A stretch of DNA of 63,222 nt, counting the filler, from Stramenopiles sp. TOSAG23-2 (lineage: Eukaryota): the NCBI GenBank assembly GCA_900128395.1. It is 2 parts of 2 records of this genome, joined end to end, with 100 filler letters (N's around TTAATTAATTAA, not from the genome) between each part and the next. Parts side by side here need not be neighbours in the genome. Positions count along the whole stretch, not along the records: positions 31,742 to 63,222 come from LT649370.1; 1 more part is not named here. The stretch is one strand, 5' to 3'. This document shows, one piece after another, positions 45,281 to 59,699 of this stretch. The notes under the pieces were generated by a model, which made no database searches, was not told the DNA's origin, and was given only the letters and a program-made list of their open reading frames with translations. A program made the translations under genes and the position numbers. How positions within the stretch are numbered: position 1 is the first letter of the stretch; every line of letters starts with the position of its first letter.

Positions 45281-47359
45281 TCACTTATTTTTCTTTAATA
45301 TTAAACAAACACCTTCATCATCATTACTATCCTCCTCCTCATCGTCTTCACCAGGACGTTTTACTTTTCTTTTCTTTTTATTATACCAAGTACTTTGCGA
45401 ATACAAACAGGTACATAATGGCATGCAAAATAAAATTATTACAGAAAAGAATTTCAAAATATCTTTTAAATTAATATCAAAATGGGATGCTCCAATGATA
45501 TAAGGTTTCCAACAATCGATTCCGATACATTCAAAATTTGTACAATCATCTTGTATCTTCATCATTGTGATCATACCTTGTCCCGAATGTGTTCCGATAT
45601 GGCAATGCAATATAACACGCCCTGTAATACCATTCATAGATGGATAACGAATACGTAATTTCCTGTTTATTGGCATAGGAAATGTATCACGCCAATTACC
45701 GTTATCCAAAAATTTATTTAATTTTGACATTGCTTCTGGTCCATCTCGTTCATCTGTTTTTCGTAGCAAACTGCTACCTTCATTGGCATCGATTGTTTGA
45801 AAATGATTTACATGTATGTGAAAGGGATGTGTTCCTAAACTTGCTTTGAATTTTAATGGCCATGTAAATCCATGGTATGTATTGTCTAAAACTAAATCTT
45901 CAATACTACCAACTTTCATACAATGCCTAGGTTTAATTTCTTTTTCTTTTGACCATAAACCACCATTTATACCAAATTGGCTAACTCCTTTTGTTGCATC
46001 TTTACGTTTATCTGGGTTTCTTTTCAGTCCAATGTTTGAAAATCCAAGCTCGTACGTACCAGCTATTTCAGATTTGTCTACTTTTGTTAAATCTTTTTGT
46101 AAAAATCTTGGAAGTGATGGTAATGTTGTTGGCATTTTCATTGGGGTTGATCCAATTGGCGCTTCCTTCATATCAAGTGTTAAAAGATCTTGAAATACCC
46201 TTTCCTCCGGATCTTTTCCTAAATATACATCGTTATCTTCATTTTGTGCACTTTTAAATGTTTTTGTACCTGTAGTGCTGCAACGAAATAAAAAATCAAC
46301 TCTCGTAGCAGGATATAAAATTAACTCTTGTAAAATTTGTATTCCTGTACGTCGATATACACCATCATATGCAAGCACATGGAATTCACAACCACCTTCT
46401 TCAATTGTTATTTCCATTATACCAGTATTTCCAGCATTTACCATTTTAAAACGTCGTATTTCATTCACATGCATATCTTTCGCTTTTGGTACAAATTGAC
46501 CATTTGTTAACATAAATAAATTATATTCTGGATCATTCAAGTTCGTTCTATTATCATCCCAAATAACTTTTAGATTATCACGTGCGAAATGTTTCAATAC
46601 ATAGTTTGATCTCCATGGCGTCAATGTCTGCTTCATTGTTTGTAAAATAATAATTTGAAAAATTAATACGGTTTCTTCGATAATCGCAAGCTCAAGTGGT
46701 ACATTTTCTGGATCATCTTTAATTAATATAATACCAGCCATGCCTCCACCTTTTTGTATTGCGGCACTTCCATGAGCATGAGGATGATACCAATACATCC
46801 CAGCAGGATGATTCTCCATAATGTTATACGTATACGTGTATACTTCTTTTGGTTTTGTTTCTCTTAAAATATTATCAGCATGACCTTCTGGGGATACCAT
46901 AAACCCATGCGTATGAAGATTGGTTGAATTAGGTTCTGCAGGAACATTAAATAACGGTTCTTGAGGTGGTTCGTTGTTAATATCTTCCAACGTATTATTA
47001 AGTGTAATTTTCAAAATATCTCCAGAAGAGATTACTAATGTTGGTCCTGGTATCTTACCTTCATACGTTCTCGTGTGAAATGTTAATGGCCCAGCTTTAT
47101 ATACCATTGGTTCAACATTTAACGTTGTATCCAATAAACCATTTGATGCATACCTAAATTCAGGTTCTTGTAATGGCATTCCACGTTTTCTGTTGCCATC
47201 ATTTTTTTTCAAATGCATTTCAGTACCAATTCCAACAATTACCGGTCCAAAGGTTTGTATTCCCACTAAATCAAAAATTAATGTAACTCCAAATAAACAT
47301 ACGAGCCATATCGGTATCAAAAATAATATAGCTACCACGCACAATTTATTGTATTTCAT
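45281..47359 (-). CDS. Membrane-anchored multicopper oxidase
   Basis: All four copper motifs are present: TNLHTHG, YWYHPHAHG, HPFHIHVN, LHCHIGTHSGQGM. Hydrophobic segments at both termini. Confidence 0.92.
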   Translation of the reverse strand: MKYNKLCVVAILFLIPIWLVCLFGVTLIFDLVGIQTFGPVIVGIGTEMHLKKNDGNRKRGMPLQEPEFRYASNGLLDTTLNVEPMVYKAGPLTFHTRTYEGKIPGPTLVISSGDILKITLNNTLEDINNEPPQEPLFNVPAEPNSTNLHTHGFMVSPEGHADNILRETKPKEVYTYTYNIMENHPAGMYWYHPHAHGSAAIQKGGGMAGIILIKDDPENVPLELAIIEETVLIFQIIILQTMKQTLTPWRSNYVLKHFARDNLKVIWDDNRTNLNDPEYNLFMLTNGQFVPKAKDMHVNEIRRFKMVNAGNTGIMEITIEEGGCEFHVLAYDGVYRRTGIQILQELILYPATRVDFLFRCSTTGTKTFKSAQNEDNDVYLGKDPEERVFQDLLTLDMKEAPIGSTPMKMPTTLPSLPRFLQKDLTKVDKSEIAGTYELGFSNIGLKRNPDKRKDATKGVSQFGINGGLWSKEKEIKPRHCMKVGSIEDLVLDNTYHGFTWPLKFKASLGTHPFHIHVNHFQTIDANEGSSLLRKTDERDGPEAMSKLNKFLDNGNWRDTFPMPINRKLRIRYPSMNGITGRVILHCHIGTHSGQGMITMMKIQDDCTNFECIGIDCWKPYIIGASHFDINLKDILKFFSVIILFCMPLCTCLYSQSTWYNKKKRKVKRPGEDDEEEDSNDDEGVCLILKKNK

Positions 47360-47939
47360 CGTATAATACTCCCTTCAATCAATATACATACATATTATCT
47401 ACATACACAATCAATATACTCCCTTCAAACCCATCTGTCCTATGAATTTATACTTATATCTATTATCATATTTTTTTTTCGTGTTAGACAAAAAACAACA
47501 TACAGTATTATACCTGGTAAGGTTGCATAAGAATAATAAACAACAACAAACAACAATGGCAACAACTGAATGCAGGAGGAAGAATGAAAAAAAACCAAAA
47601 CCAACAACAACAAAAACACAAGAGAAAAAAAAAGAAAAAACCACCTTAACCTATCATTAAAATACCATTACCGTATTAATAGTGGTATTGCCATACTAAG
47701 ATCGAAAGAAATCTGAACGTCGTCGTTCCTTCGTTCTTATAAAAAAAGAGGGCATCTAAGATATGAATCTAGTAAACTTGTAAACTTTGTGTGTAGATAA
47801 CATATATATATATATCGTGTGGATTGAAAGAAAATAATATACATTGTATAATTTACAATAGTTCAAGACATTCAAGTATTTTGTTTTTGTTTCTCTCTCT
47901 CTCTCTCTCTGTTGATATATATATATATTATATATAAAA

Positions 47940-49397
47940 ATGAATAATAGCAAAATCATAGTATTATTAACTGTATTATGTCTCTTATATACGTCAGAAG
48001 CTACTTCTTCTTTGTTGCGAGAAAGAGCACCACCTGCTGATGGAAGACCACAACGATATGGTAAAACGATATGGAAAAACTCGCAAGTTACTGGTTTTAT
48101 GTGGACAGATAAGAAACCATATAAATATGGCATTTTAAATTTTGAAGATGGATTATGTGCTGAAAAAGTACCTGTTGACTCTGTGAAAGAAACAGATACA
48201 AAACCTCTTGTTATCAAAGCTATGGAGAAGAAAGGATATCAAATCAATGAGAAAAGTGGCGACGTAAATGTCATTGGCGTGCGATTAACAGACCCATTAG
48301 GGGTCTGTCAAGGTAGCAAGACGAATAAATGCTGGAAAACTGTTTTTACAAATCGATTCCAAGATAAAATGCATATTATTTGGAAATGTGATAATGGAAA
48401 GTGGAGACATTATCAAACCGATTTTACCACCCTGCCAGGTTGGGATTTGGATAAGAAAGGTGGTTCGTTATCGAGTGTTATGGCACCAGGTCAATATACG
48501 AATTCGTATTGTTTAGGTGATCATAAAGGTACGCCTGCAATGAGACAATGCGCAAGAGTGAAGCAATGGTTATTGCAACGCCACGGTGTGAAAGGTACTG
48601 CAAGTGTTGTTTACAAGTTGCAAAATACAAAACCAAGTGTAAAGCCACATTCATTAAATTTTCATGGAACTATCAATGGACGTAGCAAACCGAAGCAAAA
48701 TAAGGGTAAATTTCCATTTACAAAATTAGTAAATAGTTGGAGTCATGGATGCCAAGTAACATTTGGAAGTATCTTTCGTGACGAAGTATTGCCACTTATT
48801 GGAACTTCAATGAATGACGAGAAATTAGCTGATGTACATTTAGTAAACCCAAAAACGAGTACATGTGTGAAACACAGAGCGGATTGTAAGAAATGTACTA
48901 CATATACTTTATTAAATCTTGCTGATGTGAAGGAGGCAGAAAACGAGAAAGGAAACGATGATGAAAAAGAAGAGGTAGTTACGGAGGAAAAGAAGGAAGA
49001 TGTAGAAGAGGAAAAATCAGGAGATGATGAAGAAAAAGAAAAAAAAGATGATGGATATAATGAAAATACAAATACAAGAAATTCAATGTGTGAAGATTCA
49101 GTAAATGCTGATATCAATAGTGCGATTTTTACACTATGTTCAACGAAACAAAAATTTTGTGAACCACGTAAGAATAAACGCGATTCTTTAATCGATTGGG
49201 TATACTGTTTAAGTTCTGGCGATAGGAAAGCAGCTGCTATGAAATCGTTGAAAGATAGTGATGATGAATTACCTTCACCATGTAAAATTGAAAAAGGCAA
49301 ATCGTATTCATTTACTACTGAAGTTCGTCATTACAAAAAAATTGCAAACGATCCAGCTGTTAGATGTCTTTTAACGAAAGGTTTCAAAGGGAAATAA
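47940..49397 (+). CDS. Secreted protein with a bacterial/phage-type YkuD-like (H...SHGC) domain, acidic linker and Cys-rich C-terminal domain
   Basis: Signal peptide MNNSKIIVLLTVLCLLYTSEA; NVIGVR, NRFQD, TTLPG, PGQY, LNFHG, WSHGCQV and TYTLL motifs. Confidence 0.7.
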   Translation: MNNSKIIVLLTVLCLLYTSEATSSLLRERAPPADGRPQRYGKTIWKNSQVTGFMWTDKKPYKYGILNFEDGLCAEKVPVDSVKETDTKPLVIKAMEKKGYQINEKSGDVNVIGVRLTDPLGVCQGSKTNKCWKTVFTNRFQDKMHIIWKCDNGKWRHYQTDFTTLPGWDLDKKGGSLSSVMAPGQYTNSYCLGDHKGTPAMRQCARVKQWLLQRHGVKGTASVVYKLQNTKPSVKPHSLNFHGTINGRSKPKQNKGKFPFTKLVNSWSHGCQVTFGSIFRDEVLPLIGTSMNDEKLADVHLVNPKTSTCVKHRADCKKCTTYTLLNLADVKEAENEKGNDDEKEEVVTEEKKEDVEEEKSGDDEEKEKKDDGYNENTNTRNSMCEDSVNADINSAIFTLCSTKQKFCEPRKNKRDSLIDWVYCLSSGDRKAAAMKSLKDSDDELPSPCKIEKGKSYSFTTEVRHYKKIANDPAVRCLLTKGFKGK

Positions 49398-50694
49398 AAT
49401 AATATTTCTCGCAGCACTCTCCCTCTTGAATTAATCTCATATAATGCACCGCTTTAAAAAAAATTTTTTTATAAAATTTTTTTATTAAAAGTGACCTGGT
49501 GTGTGTGTGAGGTATGATTATATATTATATATAATACATGAGTAAAAAACAACAGGTGTAGCACAAAGTGAGAGTGTGTTGATTACGAACGTATTTTTTT
49601 TAATTTTTAATATAAAAAGTAATTTATTAAAACATTAAATATGTCATAAAAATTATCATTATTATATTTACAATATCATATTAAAAAAGTGTCTTAGTCT
49701 CCTCTGTGAAATTGGAAAAAATAGTTTTTTGTACACTGCATATACGATTCGTATATATATTTATAATGTTGAGGTTGGAATATTAAAAAGTACTCGTATG
49801 ATACTTCGTACGTCAGTATGATACAACATACATTATGATATTACGAGAGTGTAAAATGCATTTTAGTAAATGATCTCTCTCTCTCTCTCTCTATAATTTT
49901 TCATATTTTTAATGTATACGTATATCATACCTTTTATACCGGTACACAAAATGTGTCACATCATTAATGCGTGCATGATTGCACCGATTAATATAATACA
50001 CCGAATATGATATAAATACTGTATATAAATATGCGTTTATTTTCTTGCTTTTTTATAAAAACTGTTCTATGATATTACATGTACAAAAATTTAAAACATT
50101 CACACTCTAACACCCACATCCAACATTTAAATATGTAAACAAATTCAAATTCCAGACACATAATTTTTTAACATTTTTGTAATATTAAATAATATATACC
50201 ATTATCAAACTTATTACATTGGTGTACGATATAAACATATAGCAGTTTTTCCAACATAAAAGAAGATAAACGTCTTTGCTAAATGACTACAATAACAACG
50301 AAAATTAGTTCCTACAATGGGGTAGCTTCCCATTCTCCTATGTTCATTGTATTTTGAATTACAAAGATGAAAGTTACATGATGGATACAGAATCAAATCA
50401 AATTTTTGAAATACCAGAAGAAGATACGGAAGAACCAGAAATGATTGGTACATATAATCTAGAAACACAAATGTTAAAAAAATCTGATGGTACGGAAGAT
50501 AATTGGTATGGGGCAACTTTATTTAAAATGGATTGGGAAACAAATTGAGAGAGGAGAGAGAGAGAGCCGGGGAGATATTCAAAAAAGTGTGGTGTGTTTT
50601 TAAAGAAAGTTAGATTAATATTTAAAAATATATTATACGGAGGGTACGTCGTACGTATATTTTTAAATATAATTTTTTCGTATATTATATTTTT

Positions 50695-56801: not shown

Positions 56802-59699
56802 TCATGGAGGAATAACTATTGGATTGTTAACTGTTTTGTACGACTTGAATGTTCTCCCTTCACCCTTGTTATAGTTACGGGCTGTGAAAGTTTTTCCAGG
56901 TATCACCTCGCCATCCAAGTTTAAAACGCCCTTAATCTTACGGTCTTTGCTAAACCATTCTAGTTCTGCTCCACCTACATGCGTATTATCTATGTATAGG
57001 ATATCGCCCTCTTTGATGCTAATTACATCAAATCCTCCCTTATAATCTAGTGGTACTTTAGCATCCCCTGTCTTACCTTTGGGGGGTGCTTGTAAAGGCA
57101 TTTTGTCTTTATGAGTTTCCAAGTCTATATCCCCGATAAGCTTCTTCAATTCATCTAAATTATTCTTATCAACTTGAAAACCATGCCAAATACCTTTACC
57201 TGATACGTCTACCTTCACGATTTGTGCTTTTCCACTTGATCGTGATCGTAATGCATCTGCAACTTTCCCATCGAAAAAGCCCGAGTCGCGGAACACGCTA
57301 GGTTTAAAATTTGAGCGAGTTACTGTTATTTTTGGTTTTGGTTTTTTTCTTTTTTTACCAGTACTACCAGTAATACCTTTGTCTAGTAAAACTGTTTGTT
57401 CTTTTGGCGTTATGCCAGCTTCACTCATAATTTTTGACTTTGCCTCAATTTGAACTTTTGTAAATTTACCAAACTCATCTGGTGTTCCAGTTATATGTGC
57501 TTCGTAAACTGCTACTTTTTTTTCACTTGTTAATGGGCCAATTTCATTCTCTGCGCGTTTAATTGTCGTTTCAAAATCTGGCTTAGCTTCGTATTTTCCT
57601 AATTTTTTCTTAAATTTCTTTTCTTTCCAGGTCTTGAAATTATCCTTACTACCACTATTCTTAAATTCTACTTCTAACTCTTGACGACGAATCTTTCTAT
57701 GTTTCCTAAAATTCTTCATTCTTTTTCCAAACGGGTTCCGGTTTTTTAAGTAGTTTTTTAACCTTCCAGAGAGAGAGAATCGATGCTTTGGCCTTAACAA
57801 TCCATCTTTTTTTGCCCTTGCATTTTCTAAATTTTGATATTTTTTCAACCAATCAGATTTGGTAAGAGTAGGTTTACCATTTAATCTCTTGGTATTAATA
57901 TATTTATTCCAAGCTCGTTTCTCGGCTGTGCTAAATGGGCGAACAATACTTGTTCCCATATTCTTTAAACCATCCGCGACACCAGACGTAATTCCTTTCG
58001 TTTTCATAGAACTATACAAATTTTTAATTGACGTTGATACACCCTTCTTAGCATTCTTTGCAGCACTTGCTAGTGTCTCCATATCCCCAATAAAACTGCC
58101 AGAACGTATAACTTTATACTTTTTAAATAAACTTTTTGCACCTGGAGTCTTCGTAATTTCTGCAAAATCACCTAAACCACCTAAAAGAATCACTTCGACA
58201 ATTGCACCTATCACTCCAGCACTTTTTTCAATTAATTGCTTCTTACATGCACGCTTACATGTACCAGCCCACATTTTCTTTATTTGCATGTAACTTTCAC
58301 AGACACTATTTGTCATATAAGCAAACGATTCATATAATCCCCACAGACCGCCAAGCAGTTTAATTAATATTGGAATTACTACAAATCCAGCAGCCACAAA
58401 GGCTATATTTAATAGAACCATCCCCCCAATCATAAGTAGCACCATTCCAACCATTTTGGTCGCTGGGCAAGCCATAGCAAATTCCCAACCTGCTTTTAAC
58501 GTTGAAATTAACGCGTTTAATAAACCTCTCACTGCATGTATTAAATGCTTCCGGCCTTTGGATGTCCATATTTTTCTATGAATTCTTTTTATTACATTCT
58601 GCCAAACGTGCGTCATATTGCGCACGACATATTTAATTTTTTCACTAATATCAGAACGATCTTGACATTTATCATCTTGCCACTGTTCATGCAAATCTGT
58701 TGCCATTCCTCCTAAAAAGCCATCAACTAAGCCAAAAAAAAAAGCTTTATCAACATCTTGGCTTGTCAATGCTTCTTCAATGCTTCTCTCATTCTCCATT
58801 ACTTTACTAGTATCAACAACTTCATCAGAAAAAAAACATTGCTTCAATTTAGCAATTGTACCTTTAGAAACACATTCGCACTCATTTATCCTGGTGGTAT
58901 CACACATACATTCACCACGGCATGGATTCTCTGGATCTGGTTGACAATGAGCATTTTTGCCGCATGTTCTCAAAATCGTTGTACGTTTACATTCACCTAA
59001 CGGTTTTGTCGTGGATGACGGACAACATAAAATATCAGATCCACCATCACATTTACCTTTGACAATCGGTTTGGAACACTTATCTAGATTGGTATCTATA
59101 CAAGTACCTTCATGGTTATCACATGGTACCCCCTCAGCTTTATTGTACGCGAACGATTTTATATAGTTTACGCCGCCTTTTATAGCACCCCATACAGCTC
59201 TGTTCGTTGATTTTCCTGACGTTGCTTTCTCCAACAATATCGATATATCATCCCGATGTTTTTTTAAGTCAGATGGTGATAAAATTGTATTTTCAGGTAT
59301 CTCCTTTAAATTTTGCAAATCATCCATGATAGGACTATGTTCAAATGAAAATCCTTCTTTTAAACTTTTATGTATTTCCTTTATTTCATACGTTGCATAT
59401 GCTTCAACTGACATACCCTGCATATCTTTAACTTCTAGAAAACTTAAACTATTCTCGTCAATGTTGTCTACGTTTTTTTCTAACGTTTTGACAATATTTT
59501 CCAAACTATCAGTAGACATTAAATTGTGAAACATATCATCATGCATATGTAAATGGTTTTGCATCATAACACCATGCTTAATTTGATTTGTAATGGCAAT
59601 ACATTCATGACTGATTAATAATATCAAAAAGCATAAACCTATTGTTTGTAAACGATTTTTGGTGGACTTTTTCATCTTTTTCTTTCTGGACGTATTCAC
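56802..59699 (-). CDS. Secreted polymorphic-toxin-like protein with a putative C-terminal colicin E3/CdiA-type (BECR) RNase domain
   Basis: Signal peptide, Cys-rich modules, long hydrophobic hairpin, basic linker and C-terminal KEGDILYIDNTHVGGAELEWFSKDRKIKGVLNLDG motif. Confidence 0.75.
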   Translation of the reverse strand: MNTSRKKKMKKSTKNRLQTIGLCFLILLISHECIAITNQIKHGVMMQNHLHMHDDMFHNLMSTDSLENIVKTLEKNVDNIDENSLSFLEVKDMQGMSVEAYATYEIKEIHKSLKEGFSFEHSPIMDDLQNLKEIPENTILSPSDLKKHRDDISILLEKATSGKSTNRAVWGAIKGGVNYIKSFAYNKAEGVPCDNHEGTCIDTNLDKCSKPIVKGKCDGGSDILCCPSSTTKPLGECKRTTILRTCGKNAHCQPDPENPCRGECMCDTTRINECECVSKGTIAKLKQCFFSDEVVDTSKVMENERSIEEALTSQDVDKAFFFGLVDGFLGGMATDLHEQWQDDKCQDRSDISEKIKYVVRNMTHVWQNVIKRIHRKIWTSKGRKHLIHAVRGLLNALISTLKAGWEFAMACPATKMVGMVLLMIGGMVLLNIAFVAAGFVVIPILIKLLGGLWGLYESFAYMTNSVCESYMQIKKMWAGTCKRACKKQLIEKSAGVIGAIVEVILLGGLGDFAEITKTPGAKSLFKKYKVIRSGSFIGDMETLASAAKNAKKGVSTSIKNLYSSMKTKGITSGVADGLKNMGTSIVRPFSTAEKRAWNKYINTKRLNGKPTLTKSDWLKKYQNLENARAKKDGLLRPKHRFSLSGRLKNYLKNRNPFGKRMKNFRKHRKIRRQELEVEFKNSGSKDNFKTWKEKKFKKKLGKYEAKPDFETTIKRAENEIGPLTSEKKVAVYEAHITGTPDEFGKFTKVQIEAKSKIMSEAGITPKEQTVLLDKGITGSTGKKRKKPKPKITVTRSNFKPSVFRDSGFFDGKVADALRSRSSGKAQIVKVDVSGKGIWHGFQVDKNNLDELKKLIGDIDLETHKDKMPLQAPPKGKTGDAKVPLDYKGGFDVISIKEGDILYIDNTHVGGAELEWFSKDRKIKGVLNLDGEVIPGKTFTARNYNKGEGRTFKSYKTVNNPIVIPP

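Follow-up and report, generated by a model that had tools for sequence, protein, structure and literature searches.

This work concerns a single gene on a stretch of 63,222 nucleotides from Stramenopiles sp. TOSAG23-2 (GenBank assembly GCA_900128395.1), the whole of which is here called the window. The gene is one intron-free open reading frame (ORF) of 485 codons, running from ATG to TAA on the plus strand at 47940–49397, and it is the sole long frame in that place. Its product is rather likely to be a secreted L,D-peptidase of YkuD fold, with a Cys/His active site, which was acquired once and acts on bacterial peptidoglycan. The enzyme would represent a divergent branch of the L,D-transpeptidase superfamily, made up of proteins of ~200 residues in bacteria and tailed phages that were until now unnamed. 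The protists appear to have built on this core with a signal peptide and an N-terminal extension, with further cysteines and with tails that differ from lineage to lineage.

The relationship to the bacterial and phage proteins was established by homology across the whole domain of ~190 residues. Residues 25–335 were compared by phmmer with 1.84 billion proteins, yielding 45 matches at E ≤ 1e-3, and the scores of the best relatives (E 3e-141 to 6e-33) lie far beyond chance. Close, long, eukaryote-type proteins make up P0001–P0011 (E 3e-141 to 1e-13), two of which, P0001 and P0002, come from EukProt, and about a dozen of the long matches show signal-peptide-like starts and extra cysteines. Some 30 further matches (E 2e-8 to 8e-4) are mostly ~200 residues long and come from bacteria or phages. 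P0012, a GLE1 protein, was discarded as a spurious low-complexity match. Among the 38 relatives scanned against PHROGs, 35 matched phrog_3000, a profile of unknown function, and 28 also matched the C-terminal half of phrog_33083, which is annotated as “endolysin”; the phrog_3000 profile is reached by the close relatives P0001, P0006, P0007 and P0008 as well (E 1e-4 to 2e-9). A hidden Markov model (HMM) built from alignment A1 gives the window protein 237.7 bits, a score within the range of the bacterial members but partly circular, since A1 contains the query. The consensus of alignments A2 and A3 reads NLNIVGIR .. N.F(N/D)D .. TTDPG .. VPGQY .. G.HKG .. GINIH .. WSAGCQV .. FTYTL.

The candidate active site is the most constant part of the family. 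It was assessed in 147 members aligned to the HMM (164 matches minus 17 fragments, near-duplicates of the query’s own cluster included). The histidine at the column of His242 is present in all 147, and in the S-x-G-C motif the counts are 145 for Ser, 146 for Gly and 146 for Cys, followed by Gln in 134 and Val in 147. At every one of the 24 columns conserved in ≥90% of the members the window protein carries the family residue, and these columns include N..G.R, F.D, TT.PG, GQY, G.H, the invariant His, S-x-G-C-Q-V and YTL. Where the window protein reads S-H-G-C, 112 of the 147 have Ala (S-A-G-C). The spacing between His and Cys was measured by a regular expression that covered 127 of the 147 sequences and missed 20. 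The distance is 29 in 22 of 29 eukaryote-type sequences versus 18 in 66 of 98 bacterial or phage sequences, and it is 29 in the window protein, through a Lys-rich insertion. The eukaryote-type sequences so covered carry S-H-G-C (24/29) or S-L-G-C (5/29), with the cysteine in all of them. Against 11 bona fide YkuD domains excised from four bacterial genomes, hhalign pairs His242 (codon cat at 48663) and Cys271 (tgc at 48750) with the conserved His and S-H-G-C of those domains. The two residues are put forward as candidate catalytic base and candidate nucleophile. The motif published for L,D-transpeptidases is H-x-x(14-17)-[S/T]-H-G-C-h (10.1101/2020.02.18.954545), and it is found here as H242 .. 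S268-H-G-C271-Q-V, with the S-H-G-C of canonical YkuD proteins and with two deviations, the spacing of 29 and Gln instead of a hydrophobic residue after the Cys; in the bacterial relatives the spacing is the typical one.

The fold was approached through an AlphaFold2 model built on the 40 sequences of alignment A1, with a predicted local distance difference test (pLDDT) of 84.5 and a predicted template modelling score of 0.86; pLDDT is mostly 84–98 over the catalytic domain and 44–51 over the first ~40 residues. Foldseek against the Protein Data Bank (PDB) returned a single match at E ≤ 1e-3, namely 8qzg, a 1,3 L,D-transpeptidase (E 7.7e-4, probability 0.98). With VIA-align, 22 of 48,161 representative chains reached Z ≥ 2. 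The top 20 (Z 7.7–4.6) all have the L,D-transpeptidase/carboxypeptidase (YkuD) fold and the next chain stands at Z 2.1. Pgp2 (7.7), 8qzg (7.5), Csd6 (7.2), Bd1075 (6.9), DpaA (6.7) and Tlde1a (4.9) are among them, as are 4xxt, Ldtfm, LdtMt2, YcbB, further mycobacterial and enterobacterial L,D-transpeptidases and an Acinetobacter enzyme. Nineteen of the 20 we take to be L,D-transpeptidases or carboxypeptidases by their titles or by what is known of them, 4xxt being titled differently. A repeat of the structural comparison gave the same picture. The YkuD-type fold is accepted because one fold family fills the whole list before the cliff, and on the model the likeness to the L,D-transpeptidase catalytic domain holds at the level of the fold only. 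Among the predicted viral structures of BFVD there were six matches at E ≤ 1e-3 (1.4e-13 to 9e-4), all of them phage proteins, one titled “Lysin [uncultured marine phage]”.

The gene settings of the phage relatives bear on what such a domain may do. A tblastn search with P0019 located the family in 24 phage records, belonging to crAss-like, Bacteroides and Pseudoalteromonas P2-like phages and to two huge uncultured phages. Pseudoalteromonas phage ACA1 (52 features, with HHpred notes) has two annotated holins and no annotated endolysin; its family member gp35, labelled “hypothetical”, lies between the tail tube and the tail chaperone and is the only candidate endolysin of that phage. The same place, between HP1 Orf24 and a tail assembly chaperone, is occupied in an HP1/P2-type prophage of Microbulbifer, where two overlapping small ORFs come right after the family gene. 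In crAss002 and in a murine crAss-like phage the gene stands ahead of two small genes and then the terminase, and the depositor of one crAss-like phage labelled it a peptidoglycan-binding protein. These positions are suggestive of a lysis gene, although the window gene itself has no phage around it, and the most likely role of the bacterial and phage family is that of a cell-wall lysin; a member serving as its phage’s sole lysin must cut a load-bearing bond.

Among the relatives of this type, P0014 and P0032 have at their C-terminus a hydrophobic stretch resembling a membrane anchor, which sets them apart from the soluble members of ~195 amino acids (aa). In P0023, P0034/P0084, P0035 and P0042 the lysin-like domain is C-terminal in proteins of 407–1006 aa that resemble virion or tail-associated proteins, an arrangement that suggests a use in cell entry besides lysis; no PHROG was matched by the N-terminal parts of these proteins (E ≤ 1e-3). 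In bacterial genomes a pattern scan picked out 140 candidate stretches, of which 96 were confirmed as relatives, with Bacteroidota dominant, followed by Microbulbifer, Desulfobacterota, metagenome-assembled genomes of Bacillota and others.

The window gene has the context, the composition and the clade of a horizontally acquired eukaryotic gene. The window is AT-rich (~32% GC) and gene-dense, with long uninterrupted ORFs, and the neighbouring genes are eukaryotic: a multicopper oxidase, a pseudouridine synthase, an ABCD transporter, an Nramp protein, and giant leucine-rich repeat, ankyrin and EF-hand proteins. With a GC content of 35.3%, or 24.5% at third codon positions (GC3), the gene lies among 22 other ORFs (GC 26–40%, GC3 17–36%), and its codon usage is within their spread. 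It is therefore regarded as a resident gene and not a contaminant. A maximum-likelihood tree was built from 66 rows and 191 columns, in which all ten eukaryote-type rows were kept and the bacterial rows were thinned to <62% identity. The ten rows fall on one side of a single branch (support 100/99, 200 of 200 bootstrap trees), a quick tree agrees, the stem of the clade is long (1.4–1.6 changes per column) and at least three deep lines are found within it. The evidence thus supports a gene of foreign origin that has long been settled in a eukaryotic genome, and a single acquisition from bacteria or their viruses by an ancestor of a marine protist group is the most likely history. The direction, from bacteria or phages to eukaryotes, is suggested by the breadth of the family in bacteria and phages and by the presumed substrate. 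As to the donor lineage, both trees, which are unrooted, were consulted, and the sister of the eukaryote clade differs between them and is weakly supported: P0023/P0034 in the quick tree (83), P0077 in the careful one (74/62). The features specific to the eukaryotes are the leader, the N-terminal extension, the extra cysteines and tails that differ by lineage, with an acidic linker and a helical 6-Cys domain in the window protein, PG_binding_1 in P0006 and defensin-like 6-Cys modules fused to the enzyme in P0004 and P0008. PG_binding_1, like the SPOR domain of P0020, is peptidoglycan-binding.

The stretch was present in 20 of 24 listed runs from 13 studies, all marine (seawater), eight being RNA libraries. 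Contigs from poly(A)/oligo-dT libraries cover 47944–49429 (1,532 nt, no gap) and 48089–49477, with three differences each; they cross the gene without a joint and the flanks have zero depth, which fits an expressed, intron-free gene. In three runs the RNA contigs stop at positions from 49429 to 49521, and there is no depth past ~49665, although the end of a contig is no proof of where the transcript ends. On either side of the gene lie CT/TA microsatellites (47876–47943 and 49865–49903), which the RNA coverage leaves out as repeats.

What we infer for the protein, namely its activity and the bond it cuts, its disulfides, its place in or outside the cell and its biological role, prey digestion included, may be drawn together as follows. 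His242 would activate Cys271, which would attack the carbonyl of an L-centre residue in a peptidoglycan stem peptide to form a thioester; water would then resolve this intermediate, so that the enzyme would cut instead of cross-linking. The candidate bonds are that between meso-diaminopimelate (mDAP) and D-Ala, which would make it an L,D-carboxypeptidase, and that between L-Ala and D-isoglutamate (D-iGlu), which would make it a stem-removing endopeptidase. The latter is proposed by analogy, since the Cys of 8qzg is reported to engage L-Ala1. Disulfides may stabilise the secreted peptidase, and its action could be exerted on bacteria outside the cell or within a food vacuole, for digestion or for defence. 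A bolder version, which we hold possible though tentative, is that an unrecognised branch of the L,D-transpeptidase superfamily serves tailed phages (crAss-like, P2/HP1-like and others) as a thiol endolysin cutting an L,D stem bond, perhaps L-Ala-D-iGlu, and was captured once by marine flagellates and diversified into secreted antibacterial or digestive enzymes. Fusion to peptidoglycan-binding domains, to defensin-like 6-Cys modules and to a new helical Cys-rich domain would have been the means. Cleavage of that stem bond has so far been credited to zinc peptidases.

In comparison with known systems, the closest proteins are those of the phrog_3000 type and the C-terminal half of phrog_33083, which are true homologues with the 24 conserved columns in common and similar predicted structures. 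They measure ~200 aa and occur both in phages (crAss-like, Bacteroides, Pseudoalteromonas P2-like and uncultured) and in many genomes of Bacteroidota, Microbulbifer and Desulfobacterota. Compared with them, the window protein adds a signal peptide, a 60-residue N-terminal extension, ~nine cysteines, an acidic linker and a 100-residue 6-Cys tail, has a His–Cys loop ~11 residues longer and carries S-H-G-C for S-A-G-C. The best structural neighbours are Pgp2 (6xj7), Csd6 (4xzz) and Bd1075 (7o21), with 124–127 residues aligned at a root-mean-square deviation (rmsd) of 3.4–3.6. All three are L,D-carboxypeptidases; Pgp2 and Bd1075 are hydrolytic members of the YkuD fold with a Cys/His active site. 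The three enzymes act on cell shape in bacteria and have a second domain of NTF2-like type. Some 100 residues of the window domain have no counterpart in them, identity is 8–11% and there is no match at the level of sequence. Csd6 is likewise described as hydrolytic, with a Cys/His active site (10.1101/2020.02.18.954545). The longest structural alignment (175 residues, Z 7.5) is with LDT_Go, the 1,3 L,D-transpeptidase of Gluconobacter oxydans (8qzg), whose Cys is reported to engage L-Ala1 of the stem peptide (PMC10864386). LDT_Go differs in that it cross-links the bacterium’s own wall, and identity is 10–11%. Tlde1a/Tae5 (7uma), an effector of the Salmonella type VI secretion system (T6SS), exemplifies an L,D-transpeptidase fold with conserved His and Cys that has turned antibacterial. 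It belongs, however, to another branch (PF10908, which the window protein does not match), is delivered by the T6SS together with an immunity protein, and is reported to have a shorter His–Cys spacing (10.1101/2020.02.18.954545). Other antibacterial wall enzymes acquired by eukaryotes are the NlpC/P60 proteins of Trichomonas (PMC6299479), GH25 lysozymes (PMC4241558) and tick Dae2 (10.1101/2020.04.10.036376). They are reported to follow the same pattern, in which a eukaryote captures a peptidoglycan hydrolase of bacteria or phages, equips it with a signal peptide and turns it against bacteria, but the folds and bonds are others (papain-like for NlpC/P60, a barrel for GH25) and none has the YkuD fold.

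Several observations weigh against a secreted L,D-peptidase acquired from bacteria or phages. At E ≤ 1 no Pfam family matches the window protein, YkuD, YkuD_2 and Tlde1_dom included, nor does any PHROG profile, and those three Pfam models match none of 41 relatives (E ≤ 0.01). The hhalign match to YkuD is weak (P 0.003–0.006, probability 6–11%), the Foldseek alignment to 8qzg is weak by TM score (0.30–0.34, rmsd 10), and all fold scores are middling (Z < 8), in a range that can reflect a mere common arrangement. Cross-linking and the exchange of D-amino acids are also known from enzymes of the YkuD fold, and hydrolysis is therefore not given. A Flavobacterium copy (L017, 6612–8104) is chromosomal and outside any prophage, hence not all relatives are lysins; there LytTR response regulators come before the gene, and two DUF2589 genes and small ORFs after it. 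For 8 of the 10 clade members the eukaryote-type label means signal peptides, Cys patterns and transcript-sized contigs, a eukaryotic source being on record for the window, P0001 and P0002 only, and contigs from RNA libraries are not strict proof of transcription. Membership of the YkuD clan in Pfam (PF03734, PF13645, PF10908) was found neither for the window protein nor for its relatives. No Pfam model lies over the shared domain in the 41 relatives scanned, and the lone Pfam trace for the window protein is a sub-threshold EBP50_C on the acidic linker. NCBIfam holds no model for the window protein or for 12 bacterial and phage relatives, and PDB sequences gave no match by phmmer or with the A1 profile.

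A different use of the same fold has to be weighed as well. The protein could be a poison of the Tlde1 kind, that is, a secreted antibacterial weapon or defence factor against growing bacteria and not a food-vacuole enzyme, which would trim tetrapeptide stems or swap the terminal D-Ala and so starve cross-linking. We consider this unlikely. Tlde1a is of the same fold class (7uma, Z 4.9), Tlde1_dom marks the nearest Pfam-bearing cluster in the Atlas (score 0.76, a lead only), and the defensin-like 6-Cys fusions of P0004 and P0008 would fit an extracellular antibacterial role. Tlde1a is reported to kill target cells as an L,D-carboxypeptidase and D-amino-acid exchanger (PMC9638812). The window protein, however, has no sequence match to PF10908, its structural Z to Tlde1a is below those to Pgp2, Csd6 and 8qzg, neither T6SS nor immunity genes were seen at the two bacterial loci examined, and the phage settings speak for lysis from inside the cell, for which a load-bearing bond has to be cleaved. 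More doubtful again is that the enzyme no longer acts on prey peptidoglycan and has turned to remodelling the wall of a symbiont, or to a protein substrate on the protist surface or outside the cell. The long stem of the eukaryote clade, the longer Lys-rich His–Cys loop and the new N- and C-terminal domains are compatible with such a change; yet all 24 highly conserved columns are kept, one relative in the eukaryote clade carries PG_binding_1, and the window showed neither genes for peptidoglycan synthesis nor genes of a symbiont.

Catalysis is sometimes lost when an enzyme is domesticated, and nothing more specific speaks for a lectin or receptor that stems from the enzyme and binds peptidoglycan without catalytic activity. 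With His242 and the Cys271 of S-H-G-C intact, and the Cys present in 29 of 29 eukaryote-type sequences covered by the regular expression, this is very improbable. Hardly credible at all is contamination of the assembly, with a piece of bacterial or phage DNA wrongly built into a contig of the eukaryote. The relatives of the domain are overwhelmingly bacterial or viral, but the ORF stands amid eukaryotic genes in a 63-kb stretch with host-like GC, GC3 and codon usage, has a signal-peptide-like start and eukaryote-only domains, occurs in poly(A)-selected RNA libraries and has its closest relatives in EukProt.

A secreted YkuD-type enzyme of bacterial or phage origin had been proposed for this gene in an earlier note, made from the sequence alone, and that interpretation as a whole is partly supported. 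The ORF, the motifs, the His at 48663, the Cys at 48750 and the Cys-rich tail are all where it had placed them, and the N-terminus is of the secreted type it had claimed, judged by eye from the sequence. The motif order it had given for a bacterial and phage family is real, being reproduced by the A2/A3 consensus, and homology to that uncharacterised family was borne out by the phmmer, PHROG, phage and genome searches. The two residues it had singled out are conserved, the His in 147/147 members and the S-H-G-C Cys in 146/147. The model matches the L,D-transpeptidase fold, so that the unrelated fold named beforehand as the contrary outcome did not appear. Its suggestion of horizontal transfer is upheld by the eukaryotic setting, the host-like composition and the clade support of 100/99.

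The layout of the protein is summarised in Table 1. The frame is collinear with the relatives P0046 (96% identity, 494 aa) and P0047. Read by eye, its N-terminus has a short polar start and ~12 hydrophobic residues followed by TSEA/TSS, and the protein therefore reads as secreted. A hydrophobic leader is likewise present in the eukaryote-type relatives P0001, P0004, P0006, P0008 and P0047, whereas the bacterial and phage relatives (~200 aa) begin right at the domain, without a leader. Plastid targeting was set aside: complex-plastid transit signals typically have an aromatic residue after the cleavage site, and Thr follows the likely site in this protein. The N-terminal extension can be aligned among eukaryote-type relatives only. 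The catalytic domain spans from the helix ahead of NVIGVR through TYTLL, and the extra cysteines conserved in eukaryote-type proteins are at residues 73, 150, 191, 309, 316 and 319. In the acidic linker, insertions of 9 to ~90 residues distinguish the relatives (alignment A4).

The C-terminal domain has its cysteines at residues 384, 400, 407, 423, 448 and 476, and domain and cysteines are kept in P0046, P0047, P0050, P0002 and P0048. Its model has a pLDDT of 78.1 (2 of 5 models exceed 77), and no fold match was obtained, the best being E 4.5 by Foldseek and Z 3.8 by VIA-align, among mixed helical proteins; Pfam gave no match either. A saposin-like domain was dropped, the Cys spacing being unlike the saposin pattern. 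P0048 (551 aa) and the EukProt model P0001 (377 aa) belong to one 90% cluster, but P0001 is missing the domain’s TYTLL end, the acidic linker and the initial half of the tail, which P0048 has; the shortness of P0001 looks like a gene-prediction artefact, with a false intron over the acidic repeat.

Table 1. Features of the gene and its product, in window coordinates.
Feature	Residues	Position	Strand	Basis
Complete coding sequence, 485 codons plus stop, without intron	1–485	47940–49397	+	Open frame; collinear with P0046 and P0047; jointless RNA contigs
Signal-peptide-like N-terminus	1 to ~21	47940–48002	+	Judged by eye from sequence
N-terminal extension with conserved Cys73	22–84	48003–48191	+	Eukaryote-type clade only
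Catalytic domain, YkuD-like fold (predicted)	~85–326	48192–48917	+	Model, structural matches, phrog_3000-type homology
NVIGVR	110	48267	+	Motif start
NRFQD	138	48351	+	Motif start
TTLPG	163	48426	+	Motif start
PGQY	183	48486	+	Motif start
GDHKG	193	48516	+	Motif start
LNFHG	239	48654	+	Motif start
His242, candidate catalytic base (LNFHG)	242	48663–48665	+	Invariant in family; paired by hhalign (weak)
Lys-rich loop from His242 to S-H-G-C, ~11 residues longer than in bacterial relatives		48666–48740	+	Spacing counts
SWSHGCQV	266	48735	+	Motif start
S-H-G-C motif including Cys271, candidate nucleophile		48741–48752	+	Conservation; hhalign pairing
TYTLL	321	48900	+	Motif start
Acidic Glu/Lys/Asp-rich linker	~327–383	48918–49088	+	Variable length among relatives
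C-terminal 6-Cys domain, predicted helical	384–485	49089–49394	+	Cys conserved in relatives
Probable 3′ untranslated region		49398–49520	+	RNA contig ends

The immediate neighbour, at 45281–47359 on the minus strand, encodes the multicopper oxidase of 692 aa (Cu-oxidase_2 and Cu-oxidase_3), which has hydrophobic segments near its N- and C-termini besides an acidic tail; nothing that would link it to the enzyme gene was seen. At 56802–59699, also on the minus strand, lies P0085, an ORF of 965 aa which is probably the “toxin-like gene” that the earlier note had placed ~7 kb away. The distance (7.4 kb) is as claimed, but the nearness is not meaningful in itself, the only link being a weak match between 6-Cys modules. 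P0085 has a signal-peptide-like start and a module of the form C-x6-C-x7-C-x8-C-x7-CC, ending C-D-G-G-S-D-I-L-C-C, besides Cys-rich stretches, a hydrophobic segment at ~395–445 and a Lys-rich tail, and it has no Pfam or PDB sequence match. Its module is of the type fused to the enzyme in P0008 (two copies, N-terminal) and P0004 (two, C-terminal), with weak BLASTP matches to them (E 3e-4 and 1e-3). The spacing in P0004 and P0008 is C-x6-C-x3-4-C-x8-13-C-x7-CC, which to our eye recalls beta-defensin or big-defensin patterns; no Pfam model matches these modules.

A report of this family, of an assay on any of its members, or of a YkuD-like gene in a eukaryote was not found in the literature consulted, which was judged largely on less than full texts. 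If the activity is true, a Cys/His L,D-peptidase of YkuD fold would represent a new catalytic type among phage endolysins, and a function would be provided for a widespread unnamed family of crAss-like gut phages and many marine bacteria. Among the wall enzymes that eukaryotes are known to have taken over, such as NlpC/P60, GH25 and Tae/Dae, this one would likewise be the first of YkuD fold. The gene occurs in libraries of seawater DNA and of poly(A) RNA from 13 studies and could then be used as a marker in grazing studies, and its product would be one enzyme by which abundant uncultured marine flagellates may degrade bacterial walls.

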